Assembly (NCBI GenBank): GCA_965263035.1
Contig: OZ253580.1
Location: 4,608,001 to 4,672,000 of the forward strand
Length of the DNA stretch: 64,000 bases
Direction of reading: 5' to 3'
DNA from: Acidobacteriota bacterium
GTDB lineage: Bacteria; Acidobacteriota; UBA6911; RPQK01; JAJDTT01
The first letter of the stretch is position 1. Each line of letters starts with the position of its first letter. Made by a program: the position numbers and the translations under genes. This document shows, piece by piece, positions 10,426 through 63,964 of the stretch. The notes under the pieces were generated by a model. It was not told the origin of the DNA, did not search any database, and saw only the letters and a list, made by a program, of their open reading frames with translations.

Positions 10426-10575
10426 ATAATGTAGCCGAACTCTCACCTCTTGTAAAATGGTGTTCTACCTTCTCTGCCACGTCTGACTTCGTTCCTCTTC
10501 TGCCTCGCCGCGTCACCCTGCCGACTAAAACTAAGCGGTAAGCCCGACGGAGGAGGGGACAGTCACCTTCTCTAT

Positions 10576-32841: not shown

Positions 32842-35169
32842 ATGGTCATCTCCTATGGAACCTCCTCCCTGGCCCTCCTCCTCTTCCTGGCGCGCGCAGG
32901 CCCCGCCTCCGGCGAGACCACCGGAGCCTTGACGGGAACCGTCGTCGACGAGACCGGGGGAGTCCTTCCCGGTGTCGTCGTCAACCTCCAGGCTGCCGGC
33001 GCCGAGCTCACCTCCGTCACCGACGACACGGGGCAGTGGCGCATCGACCGAGTCCCCACGGGACCGGCCACCCTGACTTTCCGGCTGTTCAACTTCGCCA
33101 GCGCCCACCGTGAGCTAACCGTGGCCCAAGGCGAGGTCTTTACGGTGGATGTCGTCCTGGTGCTCTCATTGACCGCTGACGTCGTGGTAACCGCCAAGCG
33201 CACCTTCCGGAACATCGCCGACCTTCCGAAGCCGGCGGAGAACCTGGTCGGGATCGCCTCCGCAGCCAGCGTCGGCGCCATCACCGCGGCCCAGCTCCAA
33301 GCGCGGCCCATCATGCAGCCGGGCGAAGTGCTGGAGACGGTTCCGGGCCTGGTCATCAGTCAGCACAGCGGCGAGGGAAAGGCCAACCAGTACTACCTGC
33401 GCGGCTTCAACCTGGATCATGGAACGGATTTCGCGACCACCGTCGCCGGAGTGCCTCTGAACATGCCGTCCGTCGCCCACGCCTCCGGCTACTCGGACTC
33501 CAACATGATCATTCCCGAGTTGGTGAGCGGCATCCAGTTCAGGAAGGGACCGTACTTCGCGGAAGACGGTGACTTTTCCGCCGCCGGCTCGGCCAACGTC
33601 AGCTACATGAACCTGCTGGAGCAGCCGGTGGCCAGCATCAGCACCGGCGGCCAAGGCTGGAGCCGCTTTTTTGGCGCCGCGTCACCGCACGTGGGCGACG
33701 GCAACCTGCTCATCGGCGTCGAAGTGGGCAGAAACGACGGTCCCTGGGTCGAGCCCGACGACATGCGCAAGGTGAACGGCATCCTGCGCTACAGCCGGGG
33801 AGACACGCGAAACGGCTTCTCCGTCACCGGCCTGAGCTATTCGGCGAATTGGCATGCAACGGACTAGGTGCCGGTCCGGGCCATCGAATCCGGCCGGATC
33901 GAGGGCATCGATACCACCGGCGGCGGACGGACCTACCGGCATGGCATCGTCGCCGACAGTCTGCGCTCGAACGGAGAGACCTCGACCCGAATCACCGCCT
34001 TCGGCATGCGTTACGGACTGAACCTGATCCAGAATTTTACCTATTTTCTGGCCAATTCCGTCGACGGGGATCAGTTCGAGAAGGTGGACCGCCGTACCTC
34101 GACAGGTGGCAAGGTCATCCACCGGCGCCTGCGGCAGTTCCTTGGACGGCCCATGGAATGGAAGGCCGGCACCCAGTTGCGCCACGACGACTCCAGTGTC
34201 ATCGGTCTGTACGACACGGTTAGGCAGCACCGCACCAACACGGTGCGTGAGGACGCGCTGCGCCAGACGTCGCTGGGCCTGTTCGGCGAGGGCGTGCTCG
34301 ATTGGACTTCATATTTCCGGACCTCGGTCGGGATTCGAGCCGACATCTATCGATTCGCCGTCGACGCCAACAATCCGTTGAACGCCGGCGCCGGCGTGGA
34401 TTCCATCGTCAGCCCCAAGCTGACGGCGATCCTGGGGCCGTGGCAGCAGACCGAGTTCTACGCCAATTGGGGAGAAGGCTTCCACAGCAACGACGTGCGC
34501 TGTGCGACGATCCGGGTTGACCCGCGCACCGGCGAGCCGGCCGAGAGGTTCCGTCCGCTGGTCAAGGCGCGCGGGGGCGAGATCGGCGTGCGGACGGTGA
34601 GGCTGCACGGGCTGCATTCGACGGTGGCATTCTGGTATCTGGACTTCGATTCGGAGTTGGTCTTCCTGGGCGATGCGGGCGTGACGGCCGCCAGCCGTCC
34701 AAGCTACCGCTACGGCATCGAGTGGGCGAACTATATGCTGCTCACACCCTGGATGACGGTCGAGGCCGACCTCGCGTTCACCTCTGCGCGGTTTTCGGAC
34801 GACGACCCCGCCGGACCGCGGATTCCAGGTTCGCTCAACCGCGTTTTCTCCGGCGCCCTCACGTTCGAGCCGGTGAAGCGCTTGTTCGGGAGCGTTCGCG
34901 TGCGCCATTTCGGACCTCGACCCTTCATCGAGGACAATTCCGTGAGGTCCGATTCGACGACCGTGTGGAACGGGCAGTTCGGCATCCGCTTCAACCGGCG
35001 CGTCACCGTCTCGTTTGAAGTGTTCAACCTCCTGAACTCCCCGGTGTCGGACATCGACTACTTCTATACGTCGCGTCTCCAGGGAGAACCGTTGGAGGGG
35101 GGGGACGACGTGCATACCCATCCCTCCATCCCGCGGACCGCGCGCGTCGCACTGCAAATGAGGTTTTAG
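32842..35169 (+). pseudogene. TonB-dependent receptor with an in-frame TAG at 33865-33867
   Basis: N-terminal carboxypeptidase-regulatory-like domain, plug LETVPG...YYLRGF and C-terminal Phe. Both ORFs are in the same frame, separated by one stop. Confidence 0.85.
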
Positions 35170-35346: not shown

Positions 35347-35367
35347 TAGAGAAGGTGACTGTCCCCT
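35347..35367 (+). repeat. GTGACTGTCCCCT-family motif (other copies at 10554 inverted, 36607, 43990 and 47147)
   Basis: TAGAGAAGGTGACTGTCCCCT; exact inverted copy at 10554-10574 and a one-mismatch copy at 36607-36627. Confidence 0.8.
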
Positions 35368-35379
35368 TCTCCCACGTCG

Positions 35380-35724
35380 TCACCGTTTACCAGACCGCAG
35401 CGCAGGTCGAGTGCCGCGGCGGCTCTCGCCAGGGGCTGCCAAGGCCGCAGCCGTTTGAATGTCGCCGATCAGTCGATTCCTGTCCCCCGCCAGCTTGCGA
35501 AAATCGCACTCGACTTGGATGCCATGCCAGAACTTGTCCGACTGACCGAAGAAGGCGCCAAAACGAATCGACATGGGCGGAGTGATCGACCGCCGCCCAA
35601 GGACGATTTCGTTGATCGCCCTTGGGGAGACACCGATGGCGCGGGCCATTGCATTCTGTGAAATCCCCATCGGTTTAAGGTATTCCTCAAGCAAAATCTC
35701 TCCGGGCGTGATGGGCTCTTTCAT
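35380..35724 (-). CDS. higA: HigA antitoxin, copy 1
   Basis: [15 protein letters not shown]...[12 protein letters not shown]...FW..Q HTH signature. Confidence 0.88.
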
Positions 35725-35756
35725 GTCTATATCCTGTAACGTCATAGGGTCACGAG

Positions 35757-36035
35757 TCAACGATAATCTATGATTGCCACCTGTTCTGGTCCGGCATCAG
35801 TCCACCTGAAGACAACGCGCCACCGGTTGTTGACTCGAATGGAATGAAAGCTCGAAAGGCGACCCTTAAGAGCTTCAAGCCGGTTGCCGGGCGGGATGGC
35901 AAGATCCCGTAGTTCACGGGCCTGATTCATCTGGATCAATTTTCGCAGCGCGACTCGCGAAATAGTTGCGAACCGGCGGTTGGTTTCAGATTAGAAAAGC
36001 TCTTTGGTGTCCTCATCCGAGAATGATTGAATCAT
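35757..36035 (-). pseudogene. higB: HigB toxin, copy 1, premature TAA
   Basis: [17 protein letters not shown]...[11 protein letters not shown]; copy 2 has GAA at the same codon. Confidence 0.85.
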
Positions 36036-36109
36036 CGCTAACGCATGGGACACAGGCATTTCTGCCTGAACAGGTGGTGGATGGCCCACTCCGTGACCAC
36101 CGGATACTG

Positions 36110-36353
36110 GATGCCGTTTCAACTCCGGCGCTTGTCTGGAGCCGGATACCCGAGCTTTGCAGATCATCCGCTTGACCTGCTCCGGGTTGTGCATTCCAAC
36201 CCAGCCGGCCGCTGCCTACCTGAGCCCTGTGACGGCGCCGTCCGAGCATGAACCGTCCGTGATAGCCACGACCACTTCCTTGCCTTCTTTAACGTGGAGC
36301 CCCTCTTGCGGAATGAACAAATCCTTTGAAAACCTCGTCGTGATCTCTCTCAT
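36110..36353 (-). pseudogene. DUF104-like antitoxin with an internal TAG
   Basis: Paralog of 9304-9540 with a stop at 36216-36218. Confidence 0.65.
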
Positions 36354-36710
36354 CGTTACCAATCGCTTCCACAGACCCTGGAAGTGACGCAACTGAGAAA
36401 TTCTGGATTTCGAATTCGTGAATCCCCCGTTTCTCAGTACGACATCCGGAACCGGACCCGACACGCCGAATCGCCACGATGGATTTCCGATTCGAAGGGT
36501 TCTGCGTATCCTTTACTTCCCAGGTATCTGGTGAGGCTGACACGGTCTGAAGCGGAAGCGACGGGAGACATGACACCCATGCCGCTGACACGAGGGGTAC
36601 GAGGGGTAGAGAAGGTGACTGTCTCCTTTTTCGCGTACGCTCACGGAGCCTGGATCGGCTGAATTCGTGCTTTGAGAATCATCCGGGAGCACGGCCCTCA
36701 TACCCGGGAC

Positions 36711-36737
36711 CGGGAAAGGGACAGTCTATTTCTCCCG
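36711..36737 (+). repeat. CG(G/A)GAAAGGGACAGTCT..TTCT(C/T)CCG motif (other copies at 40412, 41354 and 42361)
   Basis: Four same-orientation 27-bp copies with partly self-complementary ends. Confidence 0.8.
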
Positions 36738-36769
36738 AGGTTGGGCTCTCCTCACGCTCGCGGAATCCC

Positions 36770-37648
36770 TCATTCACCTGCGACTTCGATCAGCAGGCGG
36801 CAGTGGTCACTTGCACCCCACTCTTTGACGGCGTTCATGGCGCGAACCTTGACGCTCTTGTGGAAGCCGCGGGAGGCGAACGCATAGTCAAGCTGAAGCT
36901 GGGCGGTCTCGGGGAACTGGCGGATCGTGTGGTAGGTAGGCACGTTCCGAGTATCGGTCGGCAAGCCCCCGGGTGTTGGGTGCGCCTGCCGTCCCGCAGG
37001 AAATTTAGGTCCCATGAACTCCAAGCCGAGCGCGTCCATTCTGTCAAATACGCTGCCGTCGCGGGACATGGGTGCCGACGGACCGTCGTCGGTACCGCCG
37101 TAGACCATATTGAGGTCGCCCGCCGCCAGTATTCGATGTGTGCTTGGATCAAAGTTGCCTATGAATGCCGAAATGTCCGAGATAATGCGGTGGGCTGAAC
37201 CGTCGGCATAGCCTACGCTCCACTTACTCTTCGTAGACGGGTGCGGCCTTATCCAGCGCGCATACATGGACACAGCGATACACGGCGGGGCATCTGGTGG
37301 GATGATCCTGGCCGCGGCAATCGTAGCGATTCCGCTGACGGCGATCTCGTCCTCCATCGTTTGGCTGATCGGGCTAACCTGCTTGAACCATTCGACTTGG
37401 ACCCGGTCGGAGAGTTTCACGACCATAGGGAAGCGGTCGTATAGTCTTTTGAATCGACCCTCATACCAACGCGAATTCCATACGTGTGGGTCCCAATGTT
37501 CCGCGTTACCGGTCTGGACCCTGCCGGCAACGCCGTTTGGTACTTTTCCGGCTTCTTGGAGCAAGGCGACGCCAGCATCCATTTTCACGAGTTGCTCCCA
37601 TGGTTTGCGACGCTTACCGATGTTCCAGCACACTATTTTTGTTGCCAT
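36770..37648 (-). CDS. Endonuclease/exonuclease/phosphatase-family protein
   Basis: WNI, LLQE, AGDLN, QLDY and SDH catalytic motifs. Confidence 0.85.
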   Translation of the reverse strand: MATKIVCWNIGKRRKPWEQLVKMDAGVALLQEAGKVPNGVAGRVQTGNAEHWDPHVWNSRWYEGRFKRLYDRFPMVVKLSDRVQVEWFKQVSPISQTMEDEIAVSGIATIAAARIIPPDAPPCIAVSMYARWIRPHPSTKSKWSVGYADGSAHRIISDISAFIGNFDPSTHRILAAGDLNMVYGGTDDGPSAPMSRDGSVFDRMDALGLEFMGPKFPAGRQAHPTPGGLPTDTRNVPTYHTIRQFPETAQLQLDYAFASRGFHKSVKVRAMNAVKEWGASDHCRLLIEVAGE

Positions 37649-37821
37649 TTCTACCTCTGAAGTCGTAATCGCTGGTAGTGTAGCAAGGTCATTTTTAACA
37701 CTCTCTCTGAGCCAGATCCTTTTCGCTCCCCAGGCCGGAAACCTATTCCGACTCCTTATTCCATAGCGTCTGAGTTAATCTTCTTGCACAGGATCCCTCG
37801 TTCAACATCTGGAGGCATCTG

Positions 37822-38793
37822 ATGAACCGACTCGCCGTGCTGTCTTTATTCGCTGCGTCAACGGTCTTCGCGAGCGACCATCAACTGAAACCGGTCCGGA
37901 TTGCTGTCCCGGTCGACGGGCACATTCACCCGGCGGCCTGTGTCACCCGCTCGGGGACGATCGTTGTGACGTACGGGCGAGTGAATCACGTGGACCTGCG
38001 CATCACTCGATCATCGGACGGAGGAATGACATGGTCCGAACCTGTGCCGTTCGTCCATACCGTCGATAAGACGTATTACCCGGGCTCGCTGACGACGCTG
38101 AGCGACGGCCGCCTGTTGCATTGCTGGAACCGTTGGGATACGCCGGTCACTCAGAAAGAACCGCGGTCTGTTTTGTACTCACTGTCGAATGACGACGGAG
38201 TATCGTGGAGCGACCCGCAGCCATTCCCGCGTGATCCCGAAGTCAGATCCGTCATCCGGCACCCCATTACCGAACTGAAGTCAGGGCAATGGCTCGTGTC
38301 GTTGATAGACCGGACGTTCGTGTTTGATCCGGCCACTTCCAACGCGACACCGTTCGGCGACGGCCGTATGCATGGGTTGGTCCCGATTGTTCAGACTCCG
38401 CGAGGCACGTTCGTCAGCGGCGCCGGCATCCGATCAACGGACGACGGCGAGACGTGGAAGATCATCGAAGGCTTTCCGGACATCAGTACGCAGGGCTGGC
38501 GGCACGAAATGGTCGGTCTGAAAAATGGCTGGCTGCTGGCCTCGGAGATTCTAGGACCAGGCTTTGGCGGGGAGCGCATCCGCTATCGCCTCTCATACGA
38601 CGACGGGCAGACATGGGATGGCGTGTTTGAGTACTACAACCCTGGCCGGGCGATCAACGGCCGGGCCTGCCCCCGAACAGTGCAACTCGACGATAAGACA
38701 ATCGGCGTGGTCTTTTACGACATCGACAAAGATCAGGAGGGCGGACCGGGTTTGTTCTTCCTGCGAATCCCGATTGCGAAGCTAGGGCCGTAG
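37822..38793 (+). CDS. Secreted BNR-repeat (sialidase-like) protein
   Basis: Signal peptide; Asp boxes SSDGGMTW, SNDDGVSW, STDDGETW and SYDDGQTW. Confidence 0.85.
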   Translation: MNRLAVLSLFAASTVFASDHQLKPVRIAVPVDGHIHPAACVTRSGTIVVTYGRVNHVDLRITRSSDGGMTWSEPVPFVHTVDKTYYPGSLTTLSDGRLLHCWNRWDTPVTQKEPRSVLYSLSNDDGVSWSDPQPFPRDPEVRSVIRHPITELKSGQWLVSLIDRTFVFDPATSNATPFGDGRMHGLVPIVQTPRGTFVSGAGIRSTDDGETWKIIEGFPDISTQGWRHEMVGLKNGWLLASEILGPGFGGERIRYRLSYDDGQTWDGVFEYYNPGRAINGRACPRTVQLDDKTIGVVFYDIDKDQEGGPGLFFLRIPIAKLGP

Positions 38794-38831
38794 AGTAGCG
38801 TCATCGTCAGCTCCGGGCTAAGGGTCGGCTA

Positions 38832-38904
38832 GGAGGGGCGATTTCCAGTCGCCCATTCCGCCATGCTCCACCGGAGTTCGGCGGTTGGAAACCGCCGCTC
38901 CTCC
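38832..38904. repeat. REP-like inverted pair between convergent genes
   Basis: GGAGGGGCGATTTCCAGTCGCCC ... GGCGGTTGGAAACCGCCGCTCC. Confidence 0.7.
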
Positions 38905-38939
38905 CCTTTTTCTACCGGGTGTCACCATCAGCGCCCGTT

Positions 38940-40355
38940 TCAAGGTGGGGTGGCCAGATACACGAGTTCGCCGGCCTTGTAGACGGCGGCCACCGAGCGG
39001 GTGTTGCGGATGTCCGCCAGTGGATCCGCCGAGAGTACGACCAGGTCGGCCAGCTTCCCGGCTTCGACGGTTCCGAGCCGATCCTCCAGACCCAGGCCCT
39101 CGGCACCGTTTCGGGTCGCCATGACGATCACGTCAGCCTCGTCGATGCCCGCCTGGACCAGGAGCTCCAGCTCCCGATGCAGGCTCACGCCTGGCGTCAT
39201 CCAGGGCATTCCCAGGTCGCTCCCTGCAGTCAGCCTCACTCCCCCCTCATGAAGCCTCCGCACGATCTGGAGTGCGACGGGGAATACGTCCTTGCCGGAC
39301 GTGAAGTCCTGAGCGATTCCCACGGGGTTGGTGAAGACGAACGGGTTTCGCTGCTGCCAATCCGAACCCCAGAGCGAGACGACCGAGGGCGGAGCCCGCT
39401 GAGGTTCGAGCCGCTCGAGAACCTTCGGGTCGTCACCGAAGTAGAGGCTCTCCATCACGACCAGGGTCGGGTCGACCGTCACATCGTTGGCAACGAGGGC
39501 GGCAATCAAGGAGCTCATCAGTTCGCCGTCAAGCTCCACCAACTCGATCCAACGGGCGTAGTACTCCGGGTAGGGCAGTGCCCTCAGTTGGTCCCGGTGC
39601 CTTTCGGGGACCAGCTCCCAGGTCGGCCCGTCTGCACCGCTGTGGACCAGGGAATCGATTCCCATTCGTGCCGCCTGGGTCCAGCTCGTTGCCCGGAGGT
39701 GGCCGGCGACCCTCAGACCGAGCGTGTGGGCCTCTTCGATCGCAGCGGCCATCAGCTCTGGGGTCACGTCCCAGTACAACTTGATCATGTCCGCACCCGC
39801 CGCAGCCTGTTGTCGAACCACGTCCCGGATCTCATCCGGTGTCGCCACGGGCACCGTCCAGTCGAATCGGCTCGGAGACCCGTCGATGAAGGCGGCGCCG
39901 GTAATCATCCGCGGTCCGCGAATCCGGCCCGCCTCGATCTGATCCCGGAGCTCGACGCCGGCGCCTTGCGCGGCGCCCGGGCTGCGTACCGTGGTCACTC
40001 CGAACTCAAGCAACGCCTGCACGGTCTCGATCCGGGCCTCGGGGTGAACATGGACGTGCATGTCGATGAATCCCGGAAGCACGAAGTGGCCCGAAACGTC
40101 TCTTCGCCGTGCCGAGTCGGGGCAATGGAAATCACCCGCGCTGCCGATCCTGAGGATTCGGTCGCCGTCCACCACAACGACGCTGTCCTCGAGCGGTGCG
40201 GTGCCGATTCCGTCAATCAGAGTGGCTCCTTCGAGGACAAGAAGCCCATCGCCCACAAGCACCTCAGCGGGTTCACCGCACGCGGCACAAGCCAGGGTAA
40301 GTGCGAGAGCGCTCGCAATAAGTGGTCTGCTGCGCGATCCTGCTGCTCCTGACAT
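38940..40355 (-). CDS. Amidohydrolase-family protein
   Basis: PGFIDMHVH, AGSD and GTVEAGKLADLVVL; the start codon is uncertain. Confidence 0.88.
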   Translation of the reverse strand: MSGAAGSRSRPLIASALALTLACAACGEPAEVLVGDGLLVLEGATLIDGIGTAPLEDSVVVVDGDRILRIGSAGDFHCPDSARRRDVSGHFVLPGFIDMHVHVHPEARIETVQALLEFGVTTVRSPGAAQGAGVELRDQIEAGRIRGPRMITGAAFIDGSPSRFDWTVPVATPDEIRDVVRQQAAAGADMIKLYWDVTPELMAAAIEEAHTLGLRVAGHLRATSWTQAARMGIDSLVHSGADGPTWELVPERHRDQLRALPYPEYYARWIELVELDGELMSSLIAALVANDVTVDPTLVVMESLYFGDDPKVLERLEPQRAPPSVVSLWGSDWQQRNPFVFTNPVGIAQDFTSGKDVFPVALQIVRRLHEGGVRLTAGSDLGMPWMTPGVSLHRELELLVQAGIDEADVIVMATRNGAEGLGLEDRLGTVEAGKLADLVVLSADPLADIRNTRSVAAVYKAGELVYLATPP

Positions 40356-40501
40356 CGACGGCCTACCGTGGTGGCATTGGATCACATCTTCGCCGACAGG
40401 GTCGTTGGGAACGAGAAAGGGACAGTCTACTTCTTCCGACCAGGCAAGAATCTTGACTCCGGGCCACTTATCAGTGGTAACATATAAGAAACCATAAAGT
40501 G

Positions 40502-40831
40502 ATGATTGAGATCAGGGAGTACCTGGACACCGAAGGCCGCAGTCCGTACGGCAGTTGATTCAATCGGCTGAATCCTCGCGCTGCAGCCAAGGTCGCTACC
40601 GCCTTGGTTCGTATGGAGCATGGAAACCTCTCCAACGTCAAGGGTGTCGGTGCCGGTGTTCTCGAGTGTCGGATTGACTTCGGTCCGGACTATCGTGTGT
40701 ATTTCGGAAAGGACGGCGATGTCCTGATCATCCTGTTGGGCGGAGGAACCAAGAAACGCCAGCAGAGGGAGATCGCGGCCGCCCGTAGACTCTGGCAAGA
40801 ATACCGGCGACGCAAACGGCGGGAGACCTGA
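40502..40831 (+). pseudogene. Addiction-module killer (RelE/HigB-like) toxin with a premature TGA at 40556
   Basis: MIEIREYLDTEGRSPYGS*FNRL...ECRIDFGPDYRVYF...LLGGGTK. Confidence 0.85.
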
Positions 40832-40836
40832 AAACC

Positions 40837-41154
40837 ATGCCTTTGACACGAGACTTCAAGGAAACGATTCAGGCGCGCATCGAGAGCGATCCGGTGTTCC
40901 GCGAAGAACTGCTCAAGGAAGGGATTGAGTGCCTCCTTTCGGATGACGTGGATACGGGGAAGGCAGTACTACGCGATTACATCAACGCCACGATTGGCTT
41001 TCAGGCGCTTGGCGGATTGACCGAGAAATCTCCCAAGAGCCTGATGCGGATGTTCGGTCCCAAAGGCAACCCCCAAGCCCGAAACCTGTTCCAAATCATC
41101 GGCTTCCTTCAGAAACAAGAGGGGTTGCGCCTAAAGGTGGACGTGATTCGTTAG
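40837..41154 (+). CDS. Addiction-module antidote (HTH) protein
   Basis: MPLTRDFKETI...KSLMRMFGPKGNP; directly follows the toxin gene. Confidence 0.8.
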   Translation: MPLTRDFKETIQARIESDPVFREELLKEGIECLLSDDVDTGKAVLRDYINATIGFQALGGLTEKSPKSLMRMFGPKGNPQARNLFQIIGFLQKQEGLRLKVDVIR

Positions 41155-41477
41155 GTCAATCCGCACTCTTAAGATCCAATAAATCATTTTGATCGGGTCC
41201 AAAACCCAGGTGGGGCCAATCGGAGATCGGTTTTTTCGTTGCAGAGTCAGCCAGGAGCCTTACCGCCGGGCTGCTCGGCTAAATGAGGGAGGTTCTTCCC
41301 GGTGCCATCGTCAATGCTGGATACGGTGGTACTGGCGCTCCGCCTGGATGGACCGAGAAAGGGATGGTCTACTTCTTCCGCGCCTGTGCTTCCGGCGCTG
41401 GGTCCGCGGTTTGCGGACGCGGGGGCTCTCGTTGAAGCGTCATGAGGTCAGGGGTGACGCCTGGGGGCCACCTGTCG

Positions 41478-41822
41478 TTACCGTTCACCAGAATGCTGCG
41501 CTGGTCGAGTGGCGTGGAGCCTCTCGCCACGGGCTGCCAGTGCCGTGGCCGGTTGAATGCCGGCAATCAGTCGGTTCCTGTCACCTGCGAGCTTGCGAAA
41601 GTCGCACTCGACTTGGATGCCATGCCAGAACTTGTCCGACTGACCGAAGAAAGCGCCAAAGCGAATTGACATGGGCGGAGTGATCGACCGCCGCCCAAGG
41701 ACGATTTCGTTAATCGCCCTCGGGGAGACACCGATTGCGCGGGCCATGGCATTTTGTGAAATCCTCAGCGGCTTGAGGTATTCCTCAAGCAAAATCTCAC
41801 CGGGCGTGATGGGCTCTTTCAT
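41478..41822 (-). CDS. higA: HigA antitoxin, copy 2
   Basis: Near-identical paralog of 35380-35724. Confidence 0.88.
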
Positions 41823-41854
41823 GGCTATATCCTGTAACGTCATAGGGTAACACG

Positions 41855-42133
41855 TCAATGATAATCTACGATTGCCACTTGTTCTGGTCCGGCATCAGTC
41901 CACCTGAAGACAATGCGCCATTGGTCGTTGATACGAATCGAATAAAGGCTCGAAAGGCGACCCTTGAGAGCTTCAAGCCGGTTGCCGGGCGGGATGGCAA
42001 GATCCCGTAGCTTACGGGCCTGATTCATTTGGATCAATTTTCGCAGCGCGACTCGCGAAATAGTGGCGAACCGGCGGTTGGTTTCCGATTCGAAAAGCTC
42101 TTTGGTGTCTTCGTCCGAGAATGATTGAATCAT
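41855..42133 (-). CDS. higB: HigB toxin, copy 2, intact; a DUF104 fragment starting at 42316 is in frame upstream
   Basis: MIQSF...[11 protein letters not shown]...[14 protein letters not shown]...VDYH. Confidence 0.88.
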
Positions 42134-42428
42134 CGTTAACGCATGCGGCACAGGCATTCCAGCCCAACCGACCGCGGATTCCCTGCGCCCCGTGACGGCA
42201 CCGTCCGAGGATGCACCGTCCGTGATAGCCACGACTACTTCCTTGCCTTCCTTAACGTGGAGCCCCTCCTGCGGAATGAACAAATCCTTTGAAAACTTCG
42301 TCTTGATCTCTCTCATCGCTACGGATCGCTTCCACAGACCCTGGAATTGTCGCGGCGGACCGGGAAAGGGACAGTCTGCTTCTCCCGTGACAGACAGACC
42401 CACATTCCTGGAACGACATGAGTGCTAG

Positions 42429-42587
42429 GAGCCTGCGCCGCAGAAATTGATCTCCTGCGAAAGCGGTAGAATCGGTCCATATTTCCCCGATTTCTCGGCG
42501 AATAGAACGACTATGCACCTCAAAATCGAGAAAATCTGGCCTCGATTCCCCACTTTCTCGCTACGATCATTTCTACCGCGCAGACTC
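42429..42587. mobile_element. MITE, 159 bp, flanked by CTAG on both sides
   Basis: Imperfect TIRs GAGCCTGCGCCGCAGAAAT / GAGTCTGCGCGGTAGAAAT; a second copy starts at 63965. Confidence 0.8.
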
Positions 42588-42697
42588 CTAGGAGGGGACA
42601 TTCCTGTCCCCCTCTTCACTTGTATACTCGACTGCGCAGTTGAGCCGGGTGTCAACTTCAGCGCCCGCCACATCGTCACGCAACCAAGGGGAATTCC

Positions 42698-43696
42698 ATG
42701 CTCAAGTTCGGACTTTTCGGAGTCGGCAGGATCGGCCGGATGCGCGCAAGAATCCTCGCGGCAAACAACCGTGTGCAACTCGTGGGGATCTACGATGTCG
42801 ATACCGCCGCCGCCTCCTCCGCCGCAACTGAGACCGGGTCCGTTTCCGTCGATTCCGTCGATGCCCTGCTCGGTGATCCCACCCTCGATGCCGTTTGTAT
42901 CTCCTCCTCCACGAGTACCCACTGCGATCTGATCGAAGGCGCGGCGCGGGCCGGGAAGGCGGTGTTCTGCGAAAAACCGATCCACCTGGACATGGAGCGG
43001 GCGGACGCCTGCGGGGCAGTTCTCGCTGAGACCGGTGTGCCGTTTCAAATCGGATTCAACCGGCGCTTCGACCCCGGCCACAGCGCGGTGCACCGGGCTG
43101 CCCGCAACGGCGAGATCGGCAGCCTGGAGCAGGCCGTAATCAGCAGCCGGGATCCATTCCCGCCGCCCCTGAGATTTCTTCAGGGTTCCGGGGGGCTGTT
43201 CCGGGACATGATGGTCCACGACTTCGACATGGCCCGCTTCCTGTTCGGTGAAGAGCCCGTGGAGGTCATGGCCATGGGCAGCGTGCTGTTCGATGCGCGT
43301 GCCGGAGAACTCGGCGACGTGGACAGCGCCATGGTCGTCTTGCGGATGGCCTCGGGCGCTCTCTGCCACGTCAACTGCTCGCGCCATTGCTCCTTTGGCT
43401 ACGACCAGCGGATCGAGCTGTTCGGAGAACGCGGCATGCTGGTCTCCGCCAATCCGACCCGGACCAGCGTCGAACGCTACACGGAAGCTGGGACCGCCGC
43501 CCGCGACCGGCTGCACCCCTTTTTCATCGAGCGGTACCAGGAAGCGTTCACTCGGGAGATCGACGCCTTCGTGGATGCCGTGGAGCGAGGCGTCAAGCCG
43601 TCACCCGGCTTCGAGGACGGGAGGCGCGCCCTGCGAGTTGCCGACGCCGCGGAAGAATCAGCCAGCAGCGGCCGGGCCGTCCGAGTGAGCGCCTGA
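42698..43696 (+). CDS. iolG: Inositol 2-dehydrogenase-like Gfo/Idh/MocA oxidoreductase
   Basis: GVGRIG, CEKP, GFNRRFDP, GGLFRDMMVHDFDMARF and GYDQRIE. Confidence 0.82.
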   Translation: MLKFGLFGVGRIGRMRARILAANNRVQLVGIYDVDTAAASSAATETGSVSVDSVDALLGDPTLDAVCISSSTSTHCDLIEGAARAGKAVFCEKPIHLDMERADACGAVLAETGVPFQIGFNRRFDPGHSAVHRAARNGEIGSLEQAVISSRDPFPPPLRFLQGSGGLFRDMMVHDFDMARFLFGEEPVEVMAMGSVLFDARAGELGDVDSAMVVLRMASGALCHVNCSRHCSFGYDQRIELFGERGMLVSANPTRTSVERYTEAGTAARDRLHPFFIERYQEAFTREIDAFVDAVERGVKPSPGFEDGRRALRVADAAEESASSGRAVRVSA

Positions 43697-43977
43697 ATCC
43701 GCGCCGTCCGTCCCCCGGCTGGCGGCATCACCCACCACCAGCACCAGGACATGTCCGATCATCCCGATGGTCATGGGCATCCAGAGAAAGTTGTAGGCGC
43801 CCGGATCCAGCAATGGGATCTGGCTTTTGGGCATCTCCACCCGGGTCAGGGCCGCCCAGAGTGTGAACAGGACGCACGCGGCGAGGCCGGTGTAGGCCCC
43901 CTTGGACGTGGCCTTGGGAAAGAGCCATCCCAGGGCGAAGAGCCCCAGTTTTCCTCCCGAGACGACCAGCCCAGACC
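43530..43977 (+). repeat. ~450-bp diverged direct repeat (second copy 47176-47624)
   Basis: Both copies contain the iolG 3' end and the SSS symporter 3' end. Confidence 0.88.
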
Positions 43978-44121
43978 GAGCGCGAAAACGTGACTGTCCC
44001 CTTCTCTCTGTTCGTGGAATCCATGACCCCGGCACGGAAATTCGAGGAAGCGATCCGTGCTCGTATCACGCGTGATCCGGTCCCGGAAAAGGCGGCTGGA
44101 CCCGTCCGGCTCCGATTGGCG

Positions 44122-44334
44122 TCACTCGCTCCGGGTCACGACGGACCACAAGTAGAGAAGCATGCCCGCTCCGGCCAGACCGACTCCCAAGGTCAGGAAC
44201 AGGAACAGGGAAATCGGATGGTTCCAGAACAGGGTGCCCAACTCCACCACGATCCCGGCCGCGATCAGCAATCCAGCGAGTTGGAGGCGGCCAGCGAGTC
44301 CAGCCCGCAAACCCAGCGATCGAATCCGGCTCAT
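44122..44334 (-). CDS. Small two-helix membrane protein
   Basis: 70 aa, hydrophobic; ATG coupled to the NapC-like stop. Confidence 0.65.
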   Translation of the reverse strand: MSRIRSLGLRAGLAGRLQLAGLLIAAGIVVELGTLFWNHPISLFLFLTLGVGLAGAGMLLYLWSVVTRSE

Positions 44335-44948
44335 GGCGTCGCCTCCGGGTCCCAGCGCCCGAACCGGTCCAGTTTCGTGACCTCGTGGATCAGGTTGTGA
44401 CACATCAGGCACGATTTCGTGCCGGCGATCAGCTCGGTCCGAAACGGTGCGTGAACCGTGTTTTCCTCGTAGGACCTGGCTCCTTCGTGGCATTCCAGAC
44501 AGGCCCGGTTCTCATACGGCTCATAGAGCTTCACCGGATCGGACGGGGAACCCATCACGCTGTGCCAGACGTGCCTCACGCCGCGGATCTTGTCGTCCAC
44601 GTCCCCGAACATGGTGTAACTCGTGTGACACGTGTAGCAGGCCTTGTCGGCGGGGATGAGTTTGTTCTGGTAGTGAGCGGCGGGAAGGAACCGCGGATGG
44701 TCGATGTAAAGGCTCTCTCCGTAGGGTTGAATGACGTGACAGGAGAGACAGAAGCTGGTCGTCTTGGCCTGTTCGTAGTGTCGGCCGGCTCCGCCCACAA
44801 GCAAGAGCCCCGGTAGAGCCAAGAGTGCAAGAAACGCGAGAATCTTGCCCCTGACTCCGTTTGTCCACTCGGGCCGGCGGACGAGCACCGCGATCACCGC
44901 GAGGGTTGCGGTCCCCAGGACGCTCAGGATGACGACTTCACCCGTCAC
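44331..44948 (-). CDS. NapC/NirT-family tetraheme cytochrome c
   Basis: N-terminal TM helices; CLSCH, CYTCH, CLECH and CLMCH. Confidence 0.88.
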   Translation of the reverse strand: MTGEVVILSVLGTATLAVIAVLVRRPEWTNGVRGKILAFLALLALPGLLLVGGAGRHYEQAKTTSFCLSCHVIQPYGESLYIDHPRFLPAAHYQNKLIPADKACYTCHTSYTMFGDVDDKIRGVRHVWHSVMGSPSDPVKLYEPYENRACLECHEGARSYEENTVHAPFRTELIAGTKSCLMCHNLIHEVTKLDRFGRWDPEATP

Positions 44949-46324
44949 TCAGCGGAACTCCGCACCGGCGGCTGGTGCTTGCCACGCAATTCCTGCGCCA
45001 GGGTCCTGATCTCGGTCAAGTCCTGCAGCATCTCGCTCCAACCGTACCAGAGCGCGTAGTCCGGATTGTTGTGGAACGCGCCCTGAAACGCCCGCATCCG
45101 GTGTTCCAGGTGCATCTTGAAGAGGCGCTGTTCGATCGTCGAGGGAGCGTCGTGGAAAGCCAGCAAATCCGGGAAGTTGTAGGCATAGTGGTCCGGCTTG
45201 CGCAAGATGCCGTCGCGGTAGAGGGAAGCGATGATGCGAATCGCCTCGGCCAGCAGCCGGTCGGTCTCCCGAATCATCTCATCGCCCTTTTTCAGCTCCG
45301 CTTTCACCAGGTTTGACGAGTGGCACTGCTCGCAGATTCGGATCATGCGGTCGCGCTCGTGTTGCCAGTCCTCTTGGGTCAGCCGGGCGACATCGGCTTG
45401 CTTGACCACCTCCAACCGGGGCGTCGGTTTGCCCTCCGGGTCCAAGACGCCGAGGGCCTGGAGAATCGTGGCTCGATCGGCCGCCCACTCCTGATCCTCC
45501 GGCATGGGTAGCCGCACGGCCAGGAAGCCCCACGCCGTCCGCACCCCATGGTCCCCCTTGGGCATGTGGCAGGTCTGGCACGTGGGTGCCGCCGCCTGTT
45601 CCGGCAGGATCCCCGTCTGCTTGAGCAGATGCCGGACGCCGTGCTTGGACGAGGAGTACATCTCCCACTGAGGATGGTCGATTCCCATGTGACAGGTCCG
45701 GCAGGCTTGGGGTTCACGAGCCTCCTTGACGGAAAAGAGGTGACGCGTGTGGCAAGTGTCACATGACGCCAAGCCGAACATGACGCCGTCGGCCTTCAAC
45801 TGCTGGATCTCTTCCTCGCTCTTGAGCCCGACTCGATGGCAGCCGCCGCAGCCCTTCATGCCTTCGGTCAGGGCCATGGGGAGCCAATGCGTCGTGGGCA
45901 TGGCGTTCATGCTGACCCAGGCCAGGGCGTGCTTGCCCCCTTGGAACTGCTCCGTCTGAATCGGATGGCAGGTGGCGCAGACATCGGGGGTCGCGGTCTT
46001 CACCAGCGCCACGTCCTCCGCCGTACGATGCTCGTCGCCATGGCAGAGGGAACAGTCCACTCCCTCGGCATGGTGACGGCTCAACTCCCAGTCCGTGACG
46101 ATGCCGGGAGTGACGTCGCGGTGGCACTCGACGCAGTCCGAGGAGACCTGTTTAGAAGTCTCGCCGCCGCATGAGACCAAGGCCAGAACGGCCAACGGTA
46201 GGAAAAAGCGGATGCGGTGCAGCCCTCCGGTCCCGGTCCGGTTGCGGAGCGGCCGCCGTCGGAAGTCGAACAGCTCGCGAACGCAGAGTCCTGACACTCG
46301 CTTCCCTTCAGTAGATATTATCAC
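44945..46324 (-). CDS. Octaheme cytochrome c, HAO-like
   Basis: Eight CxxCH motifs, CHTRHLFS, CHMGIDHPQWEMY..SKHG and a helical C-terminus; start uncertain. Confidence 0.85.
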   Translation of the reverse strand: MIISTEGKRVSGLCVRELFDFRRRPLRNRTGTGGLHRIRFFLPLAVLALVSCGGETSKQVSSDCVECHRDVTPGIVTDWELSRHHAEGVDCSLCHGDEHRTAEDVALVKTATPDVCATCHPIQTEQFQGGKHALAWVSMNAMPTTHWLPMALTEGMKGCGGCHRVGLKSEEEIQQLKADGVMFGLASCDTCHTRHLFSVKEAREPQACRTCHMGIDHPQWEMYSSSKHGVRHLLKQTGILPEQAAAPTCQTCHMPKGDHGVRTAWGFLAVRLPMPEDQEWAADRATILQALGVLDPEGKPTPRLEVVKQADVARLTQEDWQHERDRMIRICEQCHSSNLVKAELKKGDEMIRETDRLLAEAIRIIASLYRDGILRKPDHYAYNFPDLLAFHDAPSTIEQRLFKMHLEHRMRAFQGAFHNNPDYALWYGWSEMLQDLTEIRTLAQELRGKHQPPVRSSAE

Positions 46325-46440
46325 TCATTTCTCGCCTTCGGGCCGCCCGGCACAGTCCGTTTTGGACCGAAGAGGCCCCCCACAAAGGGCGCCCCTACCA
46401 AGAATTCTCCTCCTCTTGAGCCGGATCCGCCAAAGTGGTA

Positions 46441-46455
46441 TATGACTCAGTCATA
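46441..46455. promoter_or_regulatory. Palindrome, candidate autoregulatory operator of the TA operon
   Basis: TATGACT-C-AGTCATA immediately before the AAGGAGG RBS. Confidence 0.5.
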
Positions 46456-46469
46456 CCAAGGAGGTGCGG

Positions 46470-46739
46470 ATGACCGTCAAAACGACCCTCAGCTTTACGG
46501 ATCGCCACCATCGGTACCTTTCGGAGAAGGTGGGCCAAGGCGTGTTTGCTACTCGGAGCGCTGCGGTGGCGGCGGCCATCGAACAGATGATGCAGGACGA
46601 GACCGAGCGAAACGTAGCGCTTTCGGCTCTGGCCGAAGAAATCCGCATGCGTATGCAGACACCGCGTTCCGAGTTCGTGGACCAGGATCACGTTTTCTCA
46701 ACCGCTCGCGCCACTATTGGGACTGATCCGAAGACGTGA
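46470..46739 (+). CDS. ParD-like RHH antitoxin
   Basis: KTTLSFTD...GVFATRSAAV pattern; overlaps the toxin start. Confidence 0.7.
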   Translation: MTVKTTLSFTDRHHRYLSEKVGQGVFATRSAAVAAAIEQMMQDETERNVALSALAEEIRMRMQTPRSEFVDQDHVFSTARATIGTDPKT

Positions 46740-47059
46740 CGTATCGCATCCGTTTCCATCCGCTGGTGGCACGTGATCTTCGAGTCATCGTCCAATGGGT
46801 CCTCGATTACGCGGGGCCGGTGGCGGCTGATCGGACGCTGACCGGGATTGAACGGACCATCACGGGATTGGCACAAACCCCTCACATGGGATCCATCCGT
46901 AACGAAATAGCATCCGGTTTGCGGGCGATCCCTGCCGGGAGAAAAGCCGTCGTAGCCTTTACGGTCGACGACAAAGCCTGCGAGGTGCTCATTCATGCGG
47001 TCACCTATGCTGGAGCAGACTGGGTCGCGCGTATACCGCAAAGGCAGGACGAGAAGTGA
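46736..47059 (+). CDS. RelE/ParE-family toxin
   Basis: YRIRFHPLVARDL...LAQTPHMGSIR...GLRAI...VTYAGADW. Confidence 0.8.
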   Translation: MTYRIRFHPLVARDLRVIVQWVLDYAGPVAADRTLTGIERTITGLAQTPHMGSIRNEIASGLRAIPAGRKAVVAFTVDDKACEVLIHAVTYAGADWVARIPQRQDEK

Positions 47060-47303
47060 GGAGTGAGGAAAGCTTCGGGAATCCTCTCGACCCCTGACCA
47101 GTTCCGGAAAGACGCCCCCCCAAGTCGACGAAGAACGAGCGAGAACGTGACTGTCCCCTTTTGGCGTCCCCTTTTAGCGGTACCAGGAATCGTTCATGGA
47201 GGAGATCGACGGCTTCGTGGATGCCGTCGAGCGAGGCGTCAAGCTGTCTTCCGGCTTCGATGACGGGAGGCGCGCCCTGCAAGTTGCCGTCGCCGCGGAA
47301 GAA

Positions 47304-48821
47304 TCAGCGAGGAGCGGCCGGACCGTCCGAGTGAGCGCCTGAACCCGCGCCGTCCTTCCCCCGGCTGGCGGCATAACCTACCCCTAGCACCAGGATGTGT
47401 CCGATCATGCCGATGGTCATGGGCATCCAGGGAAAGTTGTAGGCGCCGAGATCCAGCAACGGGCTCTGGCTGTTGGGCATCTCCACCCGGGTCAGGGCCG
47501 CCCAGAGTGTGAACATCACGCAGGCGGCAAGGCCGGTGTAGGCTCCCTTGGACGTGGCCTTGGGGAAGAGCCATCCCAGGGCGAACAAGCCCAGTTTTCC
47601 CCCCGAGACGACCAGAGCCAGACCCAGTGAGTACTTCACCAGAGACTCGATGCCGATCCACTGTTGCGCCAGGAAAATGGACAGCAGCCCGCCGACCACG
47701 ACCCCGGCCCGGCCCACCATGAGCTGGCGTCGCTGGGCGGCTCCAGGTCTCATCCGGCGATAGAAATTCTGCAGCACCACTGCCGCCACGCTGTTGAGGT
47801 CCGAGTCCATGCTGGACATGGCCGCCGCCAGCAGCCCCGCCAGGAGCAGTCCCAGAAGCCCCGGCGGCAACTCGGTCAGGATGAAGTGGGGAATGATGTT
47901 GTCCTTCACCTGTCCGACCTCCGGGGGAAGCGCCGAGGGGTCGGCCTGGTAGAAGGCCCAGAGCAGCCCCCCCAGGAACATGAACAGGAGCCAGATCGGG
48001 ACGCAGGAGAGGATGCCCAGCATGGCGCTGCGGCGGGCCTCCCGGTCGCTCCGCGCCAGCAGGTACCTCTGCACCATGTTCTGGTCGGTCCCGAAAGACT
48101 GCAGGAAGTGGAAGATCCCTCCCACGAACAGGAGCCAGAAATTGTCCTCGATCAGGCTGGGTTCCCAGCTTCCCAGGGTGAACTTGCCTCCCTCCCAGGC
48201 GGTGGTGAGGAGCTGGCCGGCGTCCCCGCGGCCCAGGATCAGGGCCGCGCAGAGCAGGCCTCCGCCCACCAGCAGGATTCCCTGCAGGAAATCGGTCCAG
48301 ACGACCCCCCGGATGCCACCCGCCAGGGTATAGGCCACGGTCAGGAGGCCCACCACCAGGATCACCCACCACACGTCCCATCCGGTGACGAAGGCCAGGG
48401 CCAGCCCCAGGAAATAGACGGTCAGGCTCATGTCCAGGATCCGGCTCACGATGAAGGAGGCCGAAGCATAGGCCTGAGCGGGATAACCGAATCGAGTTCC
48501 CAGGTACTCGTAAGGGCTCATTCGAAGCGTGCGGCGGTAAAAGACCACGAACCGCCCCACCGTCAGAAGGACCACCACCGGCAGGGCCAGGTGGTAGGCG
48601 AAGGCCCACATGTCGCTGAAGAAGACGTTGCCGGGATGGCCCACGAAGGTGGCGCTGCTCACCACCGTCCCCATGATGGAGAACCCCACGACCCAACCGG
48701 GCAGGTTGCGCCCGGCCAGGAAGTAGTCTTCCGCCGATTTCTGGCGCCGGGAGAAGTGGAAGGCCAAGCCGCCGATAAATGCCAGATAGACGACCAGGAC
48801 CGCGATGTCGAGTGGGCTCAT
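47304..48821 (-). CDS. Sodium:solute symporter
   Basis: YFLAGR.LP, GG..GVVWTD..Q, DQNMVQRYL and AAMSS.DS. Confidence 0.9.
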   Translation of the reverse strand: MSPLDIAVLVVYLAFIGGLAFHFSRRQKSAEDYFLAGRNLPGWVVGFSIMGTVVSSATFVGHPGNVFFSDMWAFAYHLALPVVVLLTVGRFVVFYRRTLRMSPYEYLGTRFGYPAQAYASASFIVSRILDMSLTVYFLGLALAFVTGWDVWWVILVVGLLTVAYTLAGGIRGVVWTDFLQGILLVGGGLLCAALILGRGDAGQLLTTAWEGGKFTLGSWEPSLIEDNFWLLFVGGIFHFLQSFGTDQNMVQRYLLARSDREARRSAMLGILSCVPIWLLFMFLGGLLWAFYQADPSALPPEVGQVKDNIIPHFILTELPPGLLGLLLAGLLAAAMSSMDSDLNSVAAVVLQNFYRRMRPGAAQRRQLMVGRAGVVVGGLLSIFLAQQWIGIESLVKYSLGLALVVSGGKLGLFALGWLFPKATSKGAYTGLAACVMFTLWAALTRVEMPNSQSPLLDLGAYNFPWMPMTIGMIGHILVLGVGYAASRGKDGAGSGAHSDGPAAPR

Positions 48822-49676: not shown

Positions 49677-49740
49677 GAGATCCGGAATGAGACCAAGAGA
49701 CTTGTTCGGTCCGAAACGGCCCCAATCATAGCACCCGTCA

Positions 49741-49941
49741 GGAGCGGCGGCTTTCTTGCCGCCGAAGGGGAGCGGCGATTTCCAATCGCCGACCAGGAGC
49801 GGCGGTTTCCAACCGCCGAACGGGAACGGCGGTTTCCAACCGCCGAACTCCCAAGGAAACAACGGAGAGCGACTTTATGGGTGAATCGAAGAGGGGGCGA
49901 CTGGAAATCGCCCCTCCGGGGACAAGAATGTCGCCCCTCCT
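49741..49941. repeat. Cluster of REP-like palindromes
   Basis: Tandem GGAGCGGCGG(C/T)TT.C...CCGCC units (four in 49741-49845) plus two further hairpins. Confidence 0.8.
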
Positions 49942-55576: not shown

Positions 55577-55785
55577 GGGAGGGCGGTTTTCTTGCCGCCC
55601 ATTGGGACAGGCGACTTTCTTGTCGCCTGCCAGGAGGGGCGACTTTCTTGTCGCCCACTGGGACAGGCGACTTTCTTGTCGCCTGCTCTTCTTTTACTGC
55701 TATGCAATTCCGTGGCCGGAATGTGTAGAGTGGGGACTCCGTCCCCCCTGCCCCCCTGTTCGGCGCCAAGAAAGCCGCCGCTCCC
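55577..55785. repeat. Cluster of REP-like palindromes
   Basis: Three GGCGACTTTCTTGTCGCC copies plus variants. Confidence 0.8.
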
Positions 55786-61871: not shown

Positions 61872-61977
61872 AGGAGGGGCGATTTCTAATCGCCCGCTGG
61901 GAGGGGCGACTTTCTTGTCGCCCATTCTTCTTTCTCTTTCGTCGATAAAGAAATCGGCGGCAAGAAAGCCGCCGCTC
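61872..61977. repeat. REP-like palindromes; the last one is the intron target
   Basis: GGAGGGGCGATTTCTAATCGCCC, GGAGGGGCGACTTTCTTGTCGCCC and inverted GGCGGCAAGAAAGCCGCCGCTC. Confidence 0.8.
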
Positions 61978-62607
61978 GTGCGCCCGACATGGGCTGTATC
62001 TAAGGGATGAAAGATCCCAAGGGAGGTGATGGGACCAACCCTAGCCGAACCGCAAGGCGTAGCCGCGAGGTGAAGCTGAAGGAAGCGGAAGGCAAACCCA
62101 CGACCGCAGGAACACGAACCGGCAGCGAGGCCGGGTGCGGGCGGTGAGCTGGTGAGCAACAGCGAAACCCGAACCCCATCCAGACGTACCAGGTAGAGCC
62201 GGGCGGCCCGGGGGGAAAGATGCAGCACCTTACTCGGGGAGATCTCAAGGGTGAGAGCCTTTGAGAAGTCAGCAGAGGTCATAGTAGCGAAGAAGCCGGA
62301 TAATGCCGGTGGAGCGAAGGACCGAAGGAGTCGGACTGGCCCTATGGTGGACTCGTCAGCGGGATCGCAACTACCTCCGGAAACGGGGCGGGGGGAGGCC
62401 CCTCGGACCCGGCACGGAAGGCCCAAGGGTGGAACCCGTCAAGCCGGAAGGGCGGAGATCAAGTCCCAGCGGCGGCGAAAACCGGAAAGAAAGGCCCTTT
62501 ACGAGGCTCGAAAGAGCCTCGAGTGACTCCAACCGCCGGATACTGAAAACGGTACGTCCGGTGGTGTGGGAGGGTGCAGGGGCGCAATCCCCTGCACTCG
62601 ACCCGAT
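61978..62607 (+). ncRNA. ORF-less group II intron, class C-like (630 nt)
   Basis: 5' GTGCG; domain V ACCGCCGGATAC...GTACGTCCGGTGGT with CGC triad; domain VI hairpin ending ACCCGAT; AAGTCAGCAGAG...GAAGGACCGAA domain III context; no RT ORF. Confidence 0.85.
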
Positions 62608-63945: not shown

Positions 63946-63964
63946 GAATTTCTCCTCACTCTAG

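Follow-up and report, generated by a model that had tools for sequence, protein, structure and literature searches.

Gene content of the locus

The DNA stretch analysed here, called the window, comprises 64,000 nucleotides (nt; positions 4,608,001 to 4,672,000 of contig OZ253580.1) of an uncultured Acidobacteriota bacterium (GCA_965263035.1). The source genome, G000, is a single contig of 6.198 Mb with 62% G+C, and is compared with eight relatives of the same genus (among them G001-G005 and G008). Behind a TonB-dependent receptor gene the window contains a mosaic of toxin-antitoxin, cytochrome and other accessory modules, at whose boundaries a 24-nt near-palindromic site recurs (Table 1). This site, its copies elsewhere in the genome and the process that may have placed it between the modules are the subject of the present analysis. 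Pfam matches leave the gene map of the preliminary description, made from the sequence and its open reading frames, essentially unchanged.

Table 1. Copies of the junction site in the window, the modules between them and the adjoining genes
Feature	Position	Strand	Remarks
Junction site, A type	10550..10573	+	core 10556-10564
IS1380-type (PF13701) transposase fragment	starts 10578		cut at ~codon 109
TonB-dependent receptor gene	32842-35169
Junction site, A type	35348..35371	-	core 35357-35365; 4 nt outside the start of HigBA copy-1 homology (35376)
HigBA copy-1 module	35376..36592	-	90% identical to copy 2 over 691 nt; HigA 35380-35760; disrupted HigB 35757-35939 (part of the domain); antitoxin-like remnant
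Junction site, variant core GAGACAGTC	36608..36631	-	core 36617-36625
Junction site, B type	36712..36735	+	core 36718-36726; right arm TTTCTCCCG
Module(s)	36770..40385		endonuclease/exonuclease/phosphatase-like 36770-37648 (-); BNR-repeat 37822-38793 (+); amidohydrolase 38940-40385 (-)
Junction site, B type	40413..40436	+	core 40419-40427
Gp49-like (HigB-type) toxin and following small gene	40604..41154	+
Junction site, degenerate	41355..41378	+	core GGGATGGTC, 41361-41369
HigBA copy-2 module	41474..42353	-
Junction site, B type	42362..42385	+	core 42368-42376
Module	42698..43980		full GFO/IDH/MocA oxidoreductase 42698-43696 (+), then 3' symporter fragment ending 43980 at the site
Junction site, A type	43983..44006	-	core 43992-44000
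Module	44331..47059		NapC/NirT-type and multi-haem cytochromes 44331-46324 (-); ParD/ParE 46464-47059 (+)
Junction site, A type	47140..47175	-	core 47149-47157; extra upstream half-site 47165-47175
3' oxidoreductase fragment	starts 47176
Sodium:solute symporter gene			whole copy, with the right duplicate (47176-47627)

The recurrent site

The 9-mer GGGACAGTC is present seven times in the window (10556+, 35357-, 36718+, 40419+, 42368+, 43992- and 47149-), compared to 0.77 +/- 0.86 in shuffled sequences, of which 0/100 reach seven copies. The 13-mer GTGACTGTCYCCT occurs five times with at most one mismatch (10554(-), 35355, 36615, 43990 and 47147; 0.21 expected), and two copies possess degenerate cores, GAGACAGTC at 36617 in the 36615 copy and GGGATGGTC at 41361 in the 41354 copy. 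All nine copies listed in the preliminary description therefore exist. The starts given there for the 27-nt B-type copies (36711, 40412, 41354 and 42361) are right, and two of the others, 35347 and 36607, are each 8 nt too low (35355 and 36615).

Alignment of the copies on their cores results in the 24-nt consensus GAGAAG-GGGACAGTC-ACCTTCTC, an 11+1+11 near-palindrome centred on the A of GAC-A-GTC, in which positions +/-4 always form a G/A mismatch. It consists of a strongly conserved stretch of 15 nt, RARAAG-GGGACAGTC, about three variable nucleotides (+4 to +6) and a terminal TTCTC. The A and B types differ solely at the variable positions (AC.. vs TA/TG..). Information content is restricted to -11..+12 and lopsided, with the left inner arm much stronger than the right; as the profile was built from model-selected copies, its edges tell more than its peaks. 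Beyond +/-12 the flanks carry no information, and no conserved flanking target is seen. An additional half-site like AAGGGGAC is located upstream in 21/101 copies, and the same pattern downstream in 11.

Exact cores number 173 genome-wide, with about 75 expected from base composition, and 101 of these 173 fall within the 15% of the genome left as intergenic by a simple home-made gene call. A profile search of the genome yields 106 hits at E<=1; removal of an unrelated family of repetitive extragenic palindromes (REPs) sharing the 9-mer, and of one palindromic copy counted twice, leaves about 101 site copies. These are clustered, not evenly spread: 56 neighbour pairs lie within 5 kb of each other vs 7.9 +/- 2.7 at random placement. 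Orientation is shared in 52 of these 56 pairs and in 14/24 pairs more than 50 kb apart, and the median spacing within arrays is 1.1 kb (quartiles 0.39 and 1.94 kb). Five further clusters contain HigB/HigA, other XRE-type genes and a TumE pair, AbiEii-like ATPases, a GmrSD nuclease, an HNH protein and a Schlafen-type protein, besides GNAT, P450, insertion sequence (IS) fragments and ordinary metabolic genes. The site arrays are thus polar and rich in toxin-antitoxin and defence genes, in line with the toxin-antitoxin-rich array described earlier for the window. That the 24-nt near-palindrome represents a direction-bearing recombination junction site is the best-supported statement of this analysis.

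Homology breakpoints at the site

The 1-kb neighbourhood of each of 102 copies was searched for paralogous DNA in the genome. Such DNA is present within 500 nt of 66 copies, and not a single alignment crosses the site. The edges of homology instead accumulate next to it, with right-hand starts most frequent between +15 and +21 and left-hand ends spread from -13 to -38. In none of the 48 copies with flank paralogues near the site are the left and right paralogues adjacent elsewhere. Given that no alignment crosses and that the flanks are never contiguous, the site is a joint of unrelated segments, not a simple insertion into pre-existing sequence, and the association with breakpoints that the preliminary description proposed as a check is present.

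In the window, the 3.2-kb cytochrome and ParDE segment (43981-47175) has a site copy of the same orientation at both ends and lies between the halves of a 451-nt direct duplication (43530-43980 and 47176-47627, 90% identical). The left duplicate contains the whole oxidoreductase and the symporter fragment, the right one the oxidoreductase fragment and the whole symporter, so that the truncated symporter (ending at 43980) and the truncated oxidoreductase (starting at 47176) are each 90% identical to a full gene. The IS1380-type transposase fragment starting at 10578 matches just the first part of a full copy at 22781-24253. The homology of the antitoxin-like region to a paralogue at 9307-9778 ends at 36592, and HigBA copy 1 starts to match four other copies at 35376, immediately beside the site. 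The gene truncations had been noticed from the window alone, as had the bracketing of modules by site copies, and the alignments support both: homology breakpoints and module boundaries fall at the site. Elsewhere in the genome, an Xer-like recombinase gene is missing its five final codons precisely at the beginning of the first of 12 co-oriented copies (5548261), and the cluster at 1.945-1.959 Mb holds two more fragments of the Xer-like family and a 375-nt repeat bracketed by site copies.

Distribution and comparison with related genomes

The degenerate pattern of the site matches 10-63 times in each of the eight same-genus genomes (reversed-pattern control: 0) and 0-2 times in 22 more distant genomes (sister genus and rest of the order). 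The exact 23-mer is found at 15 loci, all in Acidobacteriota metagenome-assembled genomes from a collection with one genome per species, and in 0 viral and 0 metagenome contigs; the plasmid collection gives a single match, a distant RelE/ParE gene. The site is confined to one uncultured Acidobacteriota genus and near-absent outside it.

The stretch between the TonB receptor and symporter genes is a variable island, measuring 12.1 kb here and 7.3-13.9 kb in the six relatives with both genes on one contig. Orthologous site copies in G001, G003 and G008 are the one behind the TonB receptor gene (35357 copy) and the 40419 copy. The gap between cytochrome and ParD genes has no site in G000, one in G003 and two in G002, and neither G002 nor G003 has a copy at the place of the ParE-adjacent one of G000. 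The cytochrome and ParDE module is orthologous in relatives, with sites there in other positions, and the module(s) at 36770..40385 are placed differently. The right arm TTTCTCCCG at 36729 is itself ancestral flank DNA, present without the core at the homologous place in G002, G003 and G005, as would be expected from joining to a look-alike secondary site. Four public contig-level runs against the island report joints with short sides (20-40 nt) at repeated DNA, and one relative's contig has a site copy between 46702 and 47356. Neither circles nor excision joints appear in these data, which as contigs could not have revealed them.

L004 13463 is an orthologous spot enclosed by two conserved genes, where G000 possesses one copy and G002 two in tandem. 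The interval is enlarged in four genomes: G001 (2.9 kb, with eight profile hits at E<=1 and a further copy of the 346-nt end of the adjacent gene), G003 (9.1 kb), G004 (0.77 kb) and G005 (3.4 kb), and the inserts of G001 and G004 carry a full or degenerate copy at both ends. Most ends of syntenic alignments with five relatives in the 18-kb region of L004 lie within ~40 nt of one of its eight copies. Locus L013 (G002 C1: 234055-236153), flanked by genes for a peptidase M16 and a TonB-type receptor, consists of three identical tandem units of 697 nt, every one holding an XRE-type helix-turn-helix (HTH) gene of 100 aa and one site copy; they show that a module was amplified in tandem. In G001 a relocated HTH cassette has no site directly adjacent, whereas its partial counterpart in G004 lies 13 nt from one.

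Structure of the site and relation to neighbouring genes

Watson-Crick pairs between the two arms number 584/1010 within copies vs 570 +/- 9.4 when arms are shuffled between copies. Single-strand DNA folds of the nine window copies reach -1.9 to -7.3 kcal/mol (z -1.75 to +1.22 vs shuffles) and are no better than those of shuffles in eight of the nine. Because arms do not covary and folds are not stable, the site most likely works as duplex DNA, and its palindromy suggests a pair of half-sites for a dimeric protein binding the double strand, not a selected hairpin.

Gaps holding the site are convergent (24), divergent (21) or tandem (39) in about the proportions of the genome. Relative to the gene strand, copies near stop codons divide into 19 co-oriented and 24 opposed ones, those near start codons into 18 and 28. 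This even spread, together with an orientation unrelated to the neighbouring gene, rules out a promoter or terminator. An RNA element is rejected as well: Rfam, run at gathering thresholds, finds nothing in 35-47 kb, its sole match in the window being group II intron domains, and no strand link to genes exists. Replication-linked polarity is equally discarded, with both orientations present on both replication arms (origin at ~2.9 Mb and terminus at ~5.85 Mb according to skew).

Candidate enzymes and mobile elements

Neither a tyrosine recombinase nor a Y1 transposase match is present inside the window, so the earlier statement that no cognate enzyme lies there stands. The genome of G000 possesses two PF01797 genes of the Y1 or REP-associated tyrosine transposase (RAYT) kind, both apparently disrupted and flanked by their own GC-rich REP hairpins of the types GGGGGACA..TGTCCCCC and GGCGGC..GCCGCC. 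The motif model of the site (E<=1) finds no flanking copy at any of 15 RAYT loci (2 in G000, 13 in five sister genomes), all of which carry other GC-rich hairpins. RAYT genes of at least 61% identity are present in all eight genus genomes, and the sister genus has distant homologues only; the distribution of RAYT matches that of the motif, yet the RAYT REPs differ from the site. A RAYT or Y1 transposase flanked by the motif, anticipated in the preliminary description, is thus missing among the 15 loci. A search for Y2 transposases (PF04986) gives no match in the genome, and it matched none of 14 control genomes either.

Two REP families were observed alongside. One, with a 28-nt period and tandem GC-rich hairpins of the GGGCGAC-TTTCTT-GTCGCCC type, occurs at 49717-49794, 55581-55686 and 61876-61925 and flanks the RAYT-like gene of L002. 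The other, GGGGGACA-N4-TGTCCCCC, flanks the RAYT-like gene of L001 and has a 10-nt string in common with the junction site. The group II intron domains (D1-D4 at 62059-62322; RF02001 79.6 bits, RF01998 47.2 bits) start ~130 nt downstream of the REP hairpins at 61876-61925, an order that recalls introns homing behind hairpins.

The features of IS ends or of the terminal repeats of miniature inverted-repeat transposable elements (MITEs) are not found at the site, which shows neither ends of fixed-length elements nor clean insertion with target duplication. Only 2/10 TnpB loci (IS605-type) lie near copies and the IS boundaries at 1946000-1947246 do not coincide with the motif; among IS110 elements 1/17 copies is near a site. 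Both families are discarded, neither being associated with the site. Nearby IS1380-type and TnpB elements have their ends elsewhere, and the motif does not represent the terminus of a known IS, one of the outcomes by which the earlier proposal would have failed.

The Xer-like tyrosine recombinase family of G000 comprises six full and three partial copies, 60-92% identical, and is the only recombinase with any link to the site: an array begins next to one copy, and several fragments lie against sites. Its members are ~330 aa long (2087369-2088337, 5656001-5656966, 3683196-3684164, 5708306-5709208, 2913462-2914358 and fragments). Every copy has a conserved AT-rich near-palindrome just 5' of its start codon, homology stops at the stop codon, and truncated copies are numerous across the genus. 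A search with the general dif pattern (11+6+11) finds a single canonical-looking dif-type site at 5875250-5875277 (ACGTCGCATAA-TGAATA-TTATGTAAACT), beside the terminus inferred from skew, with arms unrelated to the motif.

Further features of the window

The TonB receptor gene contains an in-frame TAG at 33865-33867, resulting in open reading frames of 341 and 433 aa. Its DNA is 89-93% identical over the full length in six relatives; the TAG may reflect a pseudogene, a sequencing error or read-through. A 167-nt repeat at 42425-42591 (also from 63961-64000 onward) has ~200 genomic copies of 94-99% identity and begins 38 nt past the 42368 site copy, and a 93-nt repeat at 38831-38923, between the BNR and amidohydrolase genes, has ~40 genomic copies of 75-96% identity.

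Interpretation

The site clusters with shared polarity, is restricted to one genus, coincides at its edges with homology breakpoints and stands beside variable inserts at orthologous positions, some of which carry a copy at both ends. We tentatively read it as the recombination junction of a putative site-specific recombinase, at slightly less than even confidence, and infer the recombinase, the crossover point and circular intermediates from this pattern. Core-type sites (loxP, FRT, dif and att cores) have inverted arms around a short asymmetric centre, whose sequence partner sites share and which gives the site its direction. A near-invariant centre, degenerate inverted arms, polar arrays and inserts flanked by copies fit a site of this type; the Acidobacteriota site resembles it in its inverted arms around a conserved centre, and differs in that its conservation is lopsided and its recombinase putative. 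The enzyme would read duplex DNA laid out as ~8-bp inverted arms around a near-invariant GACAGTC centre. Circles or segments with one copy would integrate at a resident copy, so that one copy remains on either side, and segments between co-oriented copies would be duplicated or lost. Repeated events could build polar arrays of toxin-antitoxin, defence and accessory genes at fixed chromosomal hot spots, and joining to non-cognate DNA, or deletion initiated at the site, would leave cut-off genes against it.

Several observations weigh against a site-specific recombinase. No enzyme is tied to the site, and the best genomic match to the integron integrase model (TIGR02249) reaches 78.7 bits vs a cut-off of 265, the matches skipping model positions 185-241 and lacking the IntI-specific stretch. 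The Xer-like family is a weak candidate and was not retained as the cognate enzyme, its link being weak and its distribution mismatched: across the genus 27/30 of its loci have no site within 1.5 kb, G004 and G005 retain fragments only and G008 none, yet all three have the site, and motif-free genomes of the sister genus possess homologues of 54-66% identity. The window array itself, reading - - + + + + - -, is the main exception to polarity. The boundary of the HigBA module varies, HigBA copy 2 and a third copy lying ~100 nt from the site and two further copies lacking one, and the left junction of the G005 insert at L004 13463 has no recognisable site. Numerous junctions fall on the outer edge of the site and abut arbitrary positions within genes, as with the symporter fragment, whose own sequence supplies no site arm. 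Precise site-by-site exchange would not produce such junctions, and a second process is needed, be it the use of secondary sites, site-initiated deletion or mobility of the site. This need keeps the recombinase short of even probability and leaves room for a mini-repeat.

Such a mini-repeat, which we regard as unlikely though far from negligible, would be a selfish REP- or MITE-like element multiplying itself by transposition or templated copying and favouring dispensable DNA; the mosaic would be a by-product of homologous or slipped recombination between co-oriented copies and of adjacent deletions. Copy number does vary in the manner of a repeat, from none to two in the cytochrome-ParD gap and between one and two in tandem at L004 13463; extra half-sites are found upstream more often than downstream, junctions lie at the outer edges of the unit with arbitrary sequence on either side, and fragments beside copies are often local duplicates of neighbouring genes. 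Yet clean insertion, with contiguous flanks at a paralogous locus, is seen in 0/48 copies, the orthologous case of presence and absence is replaced sequence instead of a simple indel, and the nearly uniform orientation of close pairs is not expected of a near-palindrome inserted at random. The RAYT loci without the site (0/15) and the lack of a conserved flanking target point in the same direction. 

Quite improbable in our view is a single-strand hairpin signal for an HUH enzyme (RAYT, IS200/IS605 or IS91-like) acting by one-ended or rolling-circle copying, the cleavage-site reading entertained in the preliminary description. One-ended copying would explain the gene fragments of variable length that abut the site, the 11+1+11 consensus is near-palindromic, the distribution of Y1 (PF01797) genes matches that of the motif, and one RAYT-associated REP family has a 10-nt string in common with it. 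All 15 RAYT loci are flanked by other GC-rich perfect hairpins without a match to the motif model, however; the arms do not covary, window copies fold no better than shuffles with one exception, TnpB elements do not end at the motif, and no obvious strand or replication-direction bias is seen. The cleavage-site reading is not supported. Still a little less probable is a binding site for a dimeric protein without any role in recombination (an operator, insulator or nucleoid-structuring site), coinciding with module boundaries because it is intergenic. Palindromic half-sites without structural covariation, a core conserved in orthologous copies of species ~10% divergent and the frequency of XRE-type HTH genes in the arrays would agree with it, but position and orientation are neutral with respect to genes, and a passive role leaves the homology ends at the edges, the cut-off genes and the inserts flanked by copies unexplained.

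Comparison with known systems

The attC sites of integrons are imperfect palindromes of 57-141 nt that fold as single-strand hairpins, with conserved structure and variable sequence, delimited by outer core boxes (R''/R') RYYYAAC ... GTTRRRY. Such boxes at 50-140 nt bracket 0/101 copies of the present site, compared to 0.3 +/- 0.5 for random intergenic positions. With no integron integrase above the cut-off either, the site is rightly called non-attC. It is only 24 nt long, its centre is conserved and its arms vary, and it has neither a stable hairpin nor an IntI; its junctions are, unlike those of integrons, often imprecise and cut genes, and its modules face either way.

REPs and bacterial interspersed mosaic elements (BIMEs) are short extragenic near-palindromes mobilised by RAYT (Y1) transposases. 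The site resembles them in its ~100 copies, its lineage specificity, its sometimes tandem arrangement and its association with rearrangements. It differs in the lack of a RAYT flanked by the site, of hairpin stability and of covariation, and in its strongly polar clusters.

The architecture comes closest to integron arrays and CALINs, the latter being clusters of attC sites without an integrase (PMC4889954), and the logic to the pdif (XerC/XerD) modules of Acinetobacter plasmids (PMC6449649, PMC13141974). Co-oriented sites ~1 kb apart separate one- or two-gene, toxin-antitoxin-rich modules as in integron arrays, and fixed chromosomal places, differences between species and a site copy on either side of inserts are likewise shared with integrons. 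Of the integron-like character attributed to the island, the architecture and the insertion at a resident site are therefore retained, but many imprecise junctions and the lack of a recombinase tied to the site speak against it. With pdif modules the arrays have in common that short sites bound accessory modules, toxin-antitoxin pairs included, which are shuffled among replicons or loci, and that no dedicated integrase is adjacent (PMC6449649, PMC13141974). In contrast to pdif sites as described there, copies are co-oriented and not alternating, chromosomal and genus-wide, and the site does not resemble the dif-type site of its host. None of the defining molecular features of integrons, CALINs or pdif modules that were tested is found at the site. 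A full-text literature search yields no description of such a site, nor of non-integron cassette arrays, in Acidobacteriota.

A wider proposal, which we consider doubtful, is gene capture analogous to that of integrons and independent of IntI and attC, with the duplex site and the putative recombinase as one local version of a wider, putative class in the phylum. Acidobacteriota would then possess several kinds of cassette array, each lineage with its own junction site, and the junctions between site and cut-off gene might be snapshots of cassette birth.

Implications

Integrons are the textbook means by which bacteria stockpile and reshuffle single-gene modules. If the arrays do represent a second, unrelated system of site and enzyme, cassette arrays would have evolved more than once, and an unexplored pool of recombinases and sites would be opened. 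The junctions of the site with gene fragments could then bear on the origin of cassettes, an open question for integrons too. Should the site be a mini-repeat, it would be a lineage-specific repeat driving local rearrangement, useful for annotation but ordinary. For this uncultured Acidobacteriota genus, the 24-nt site is a sharp marker of variable islands and of their toxin-antitoxin and defence content.

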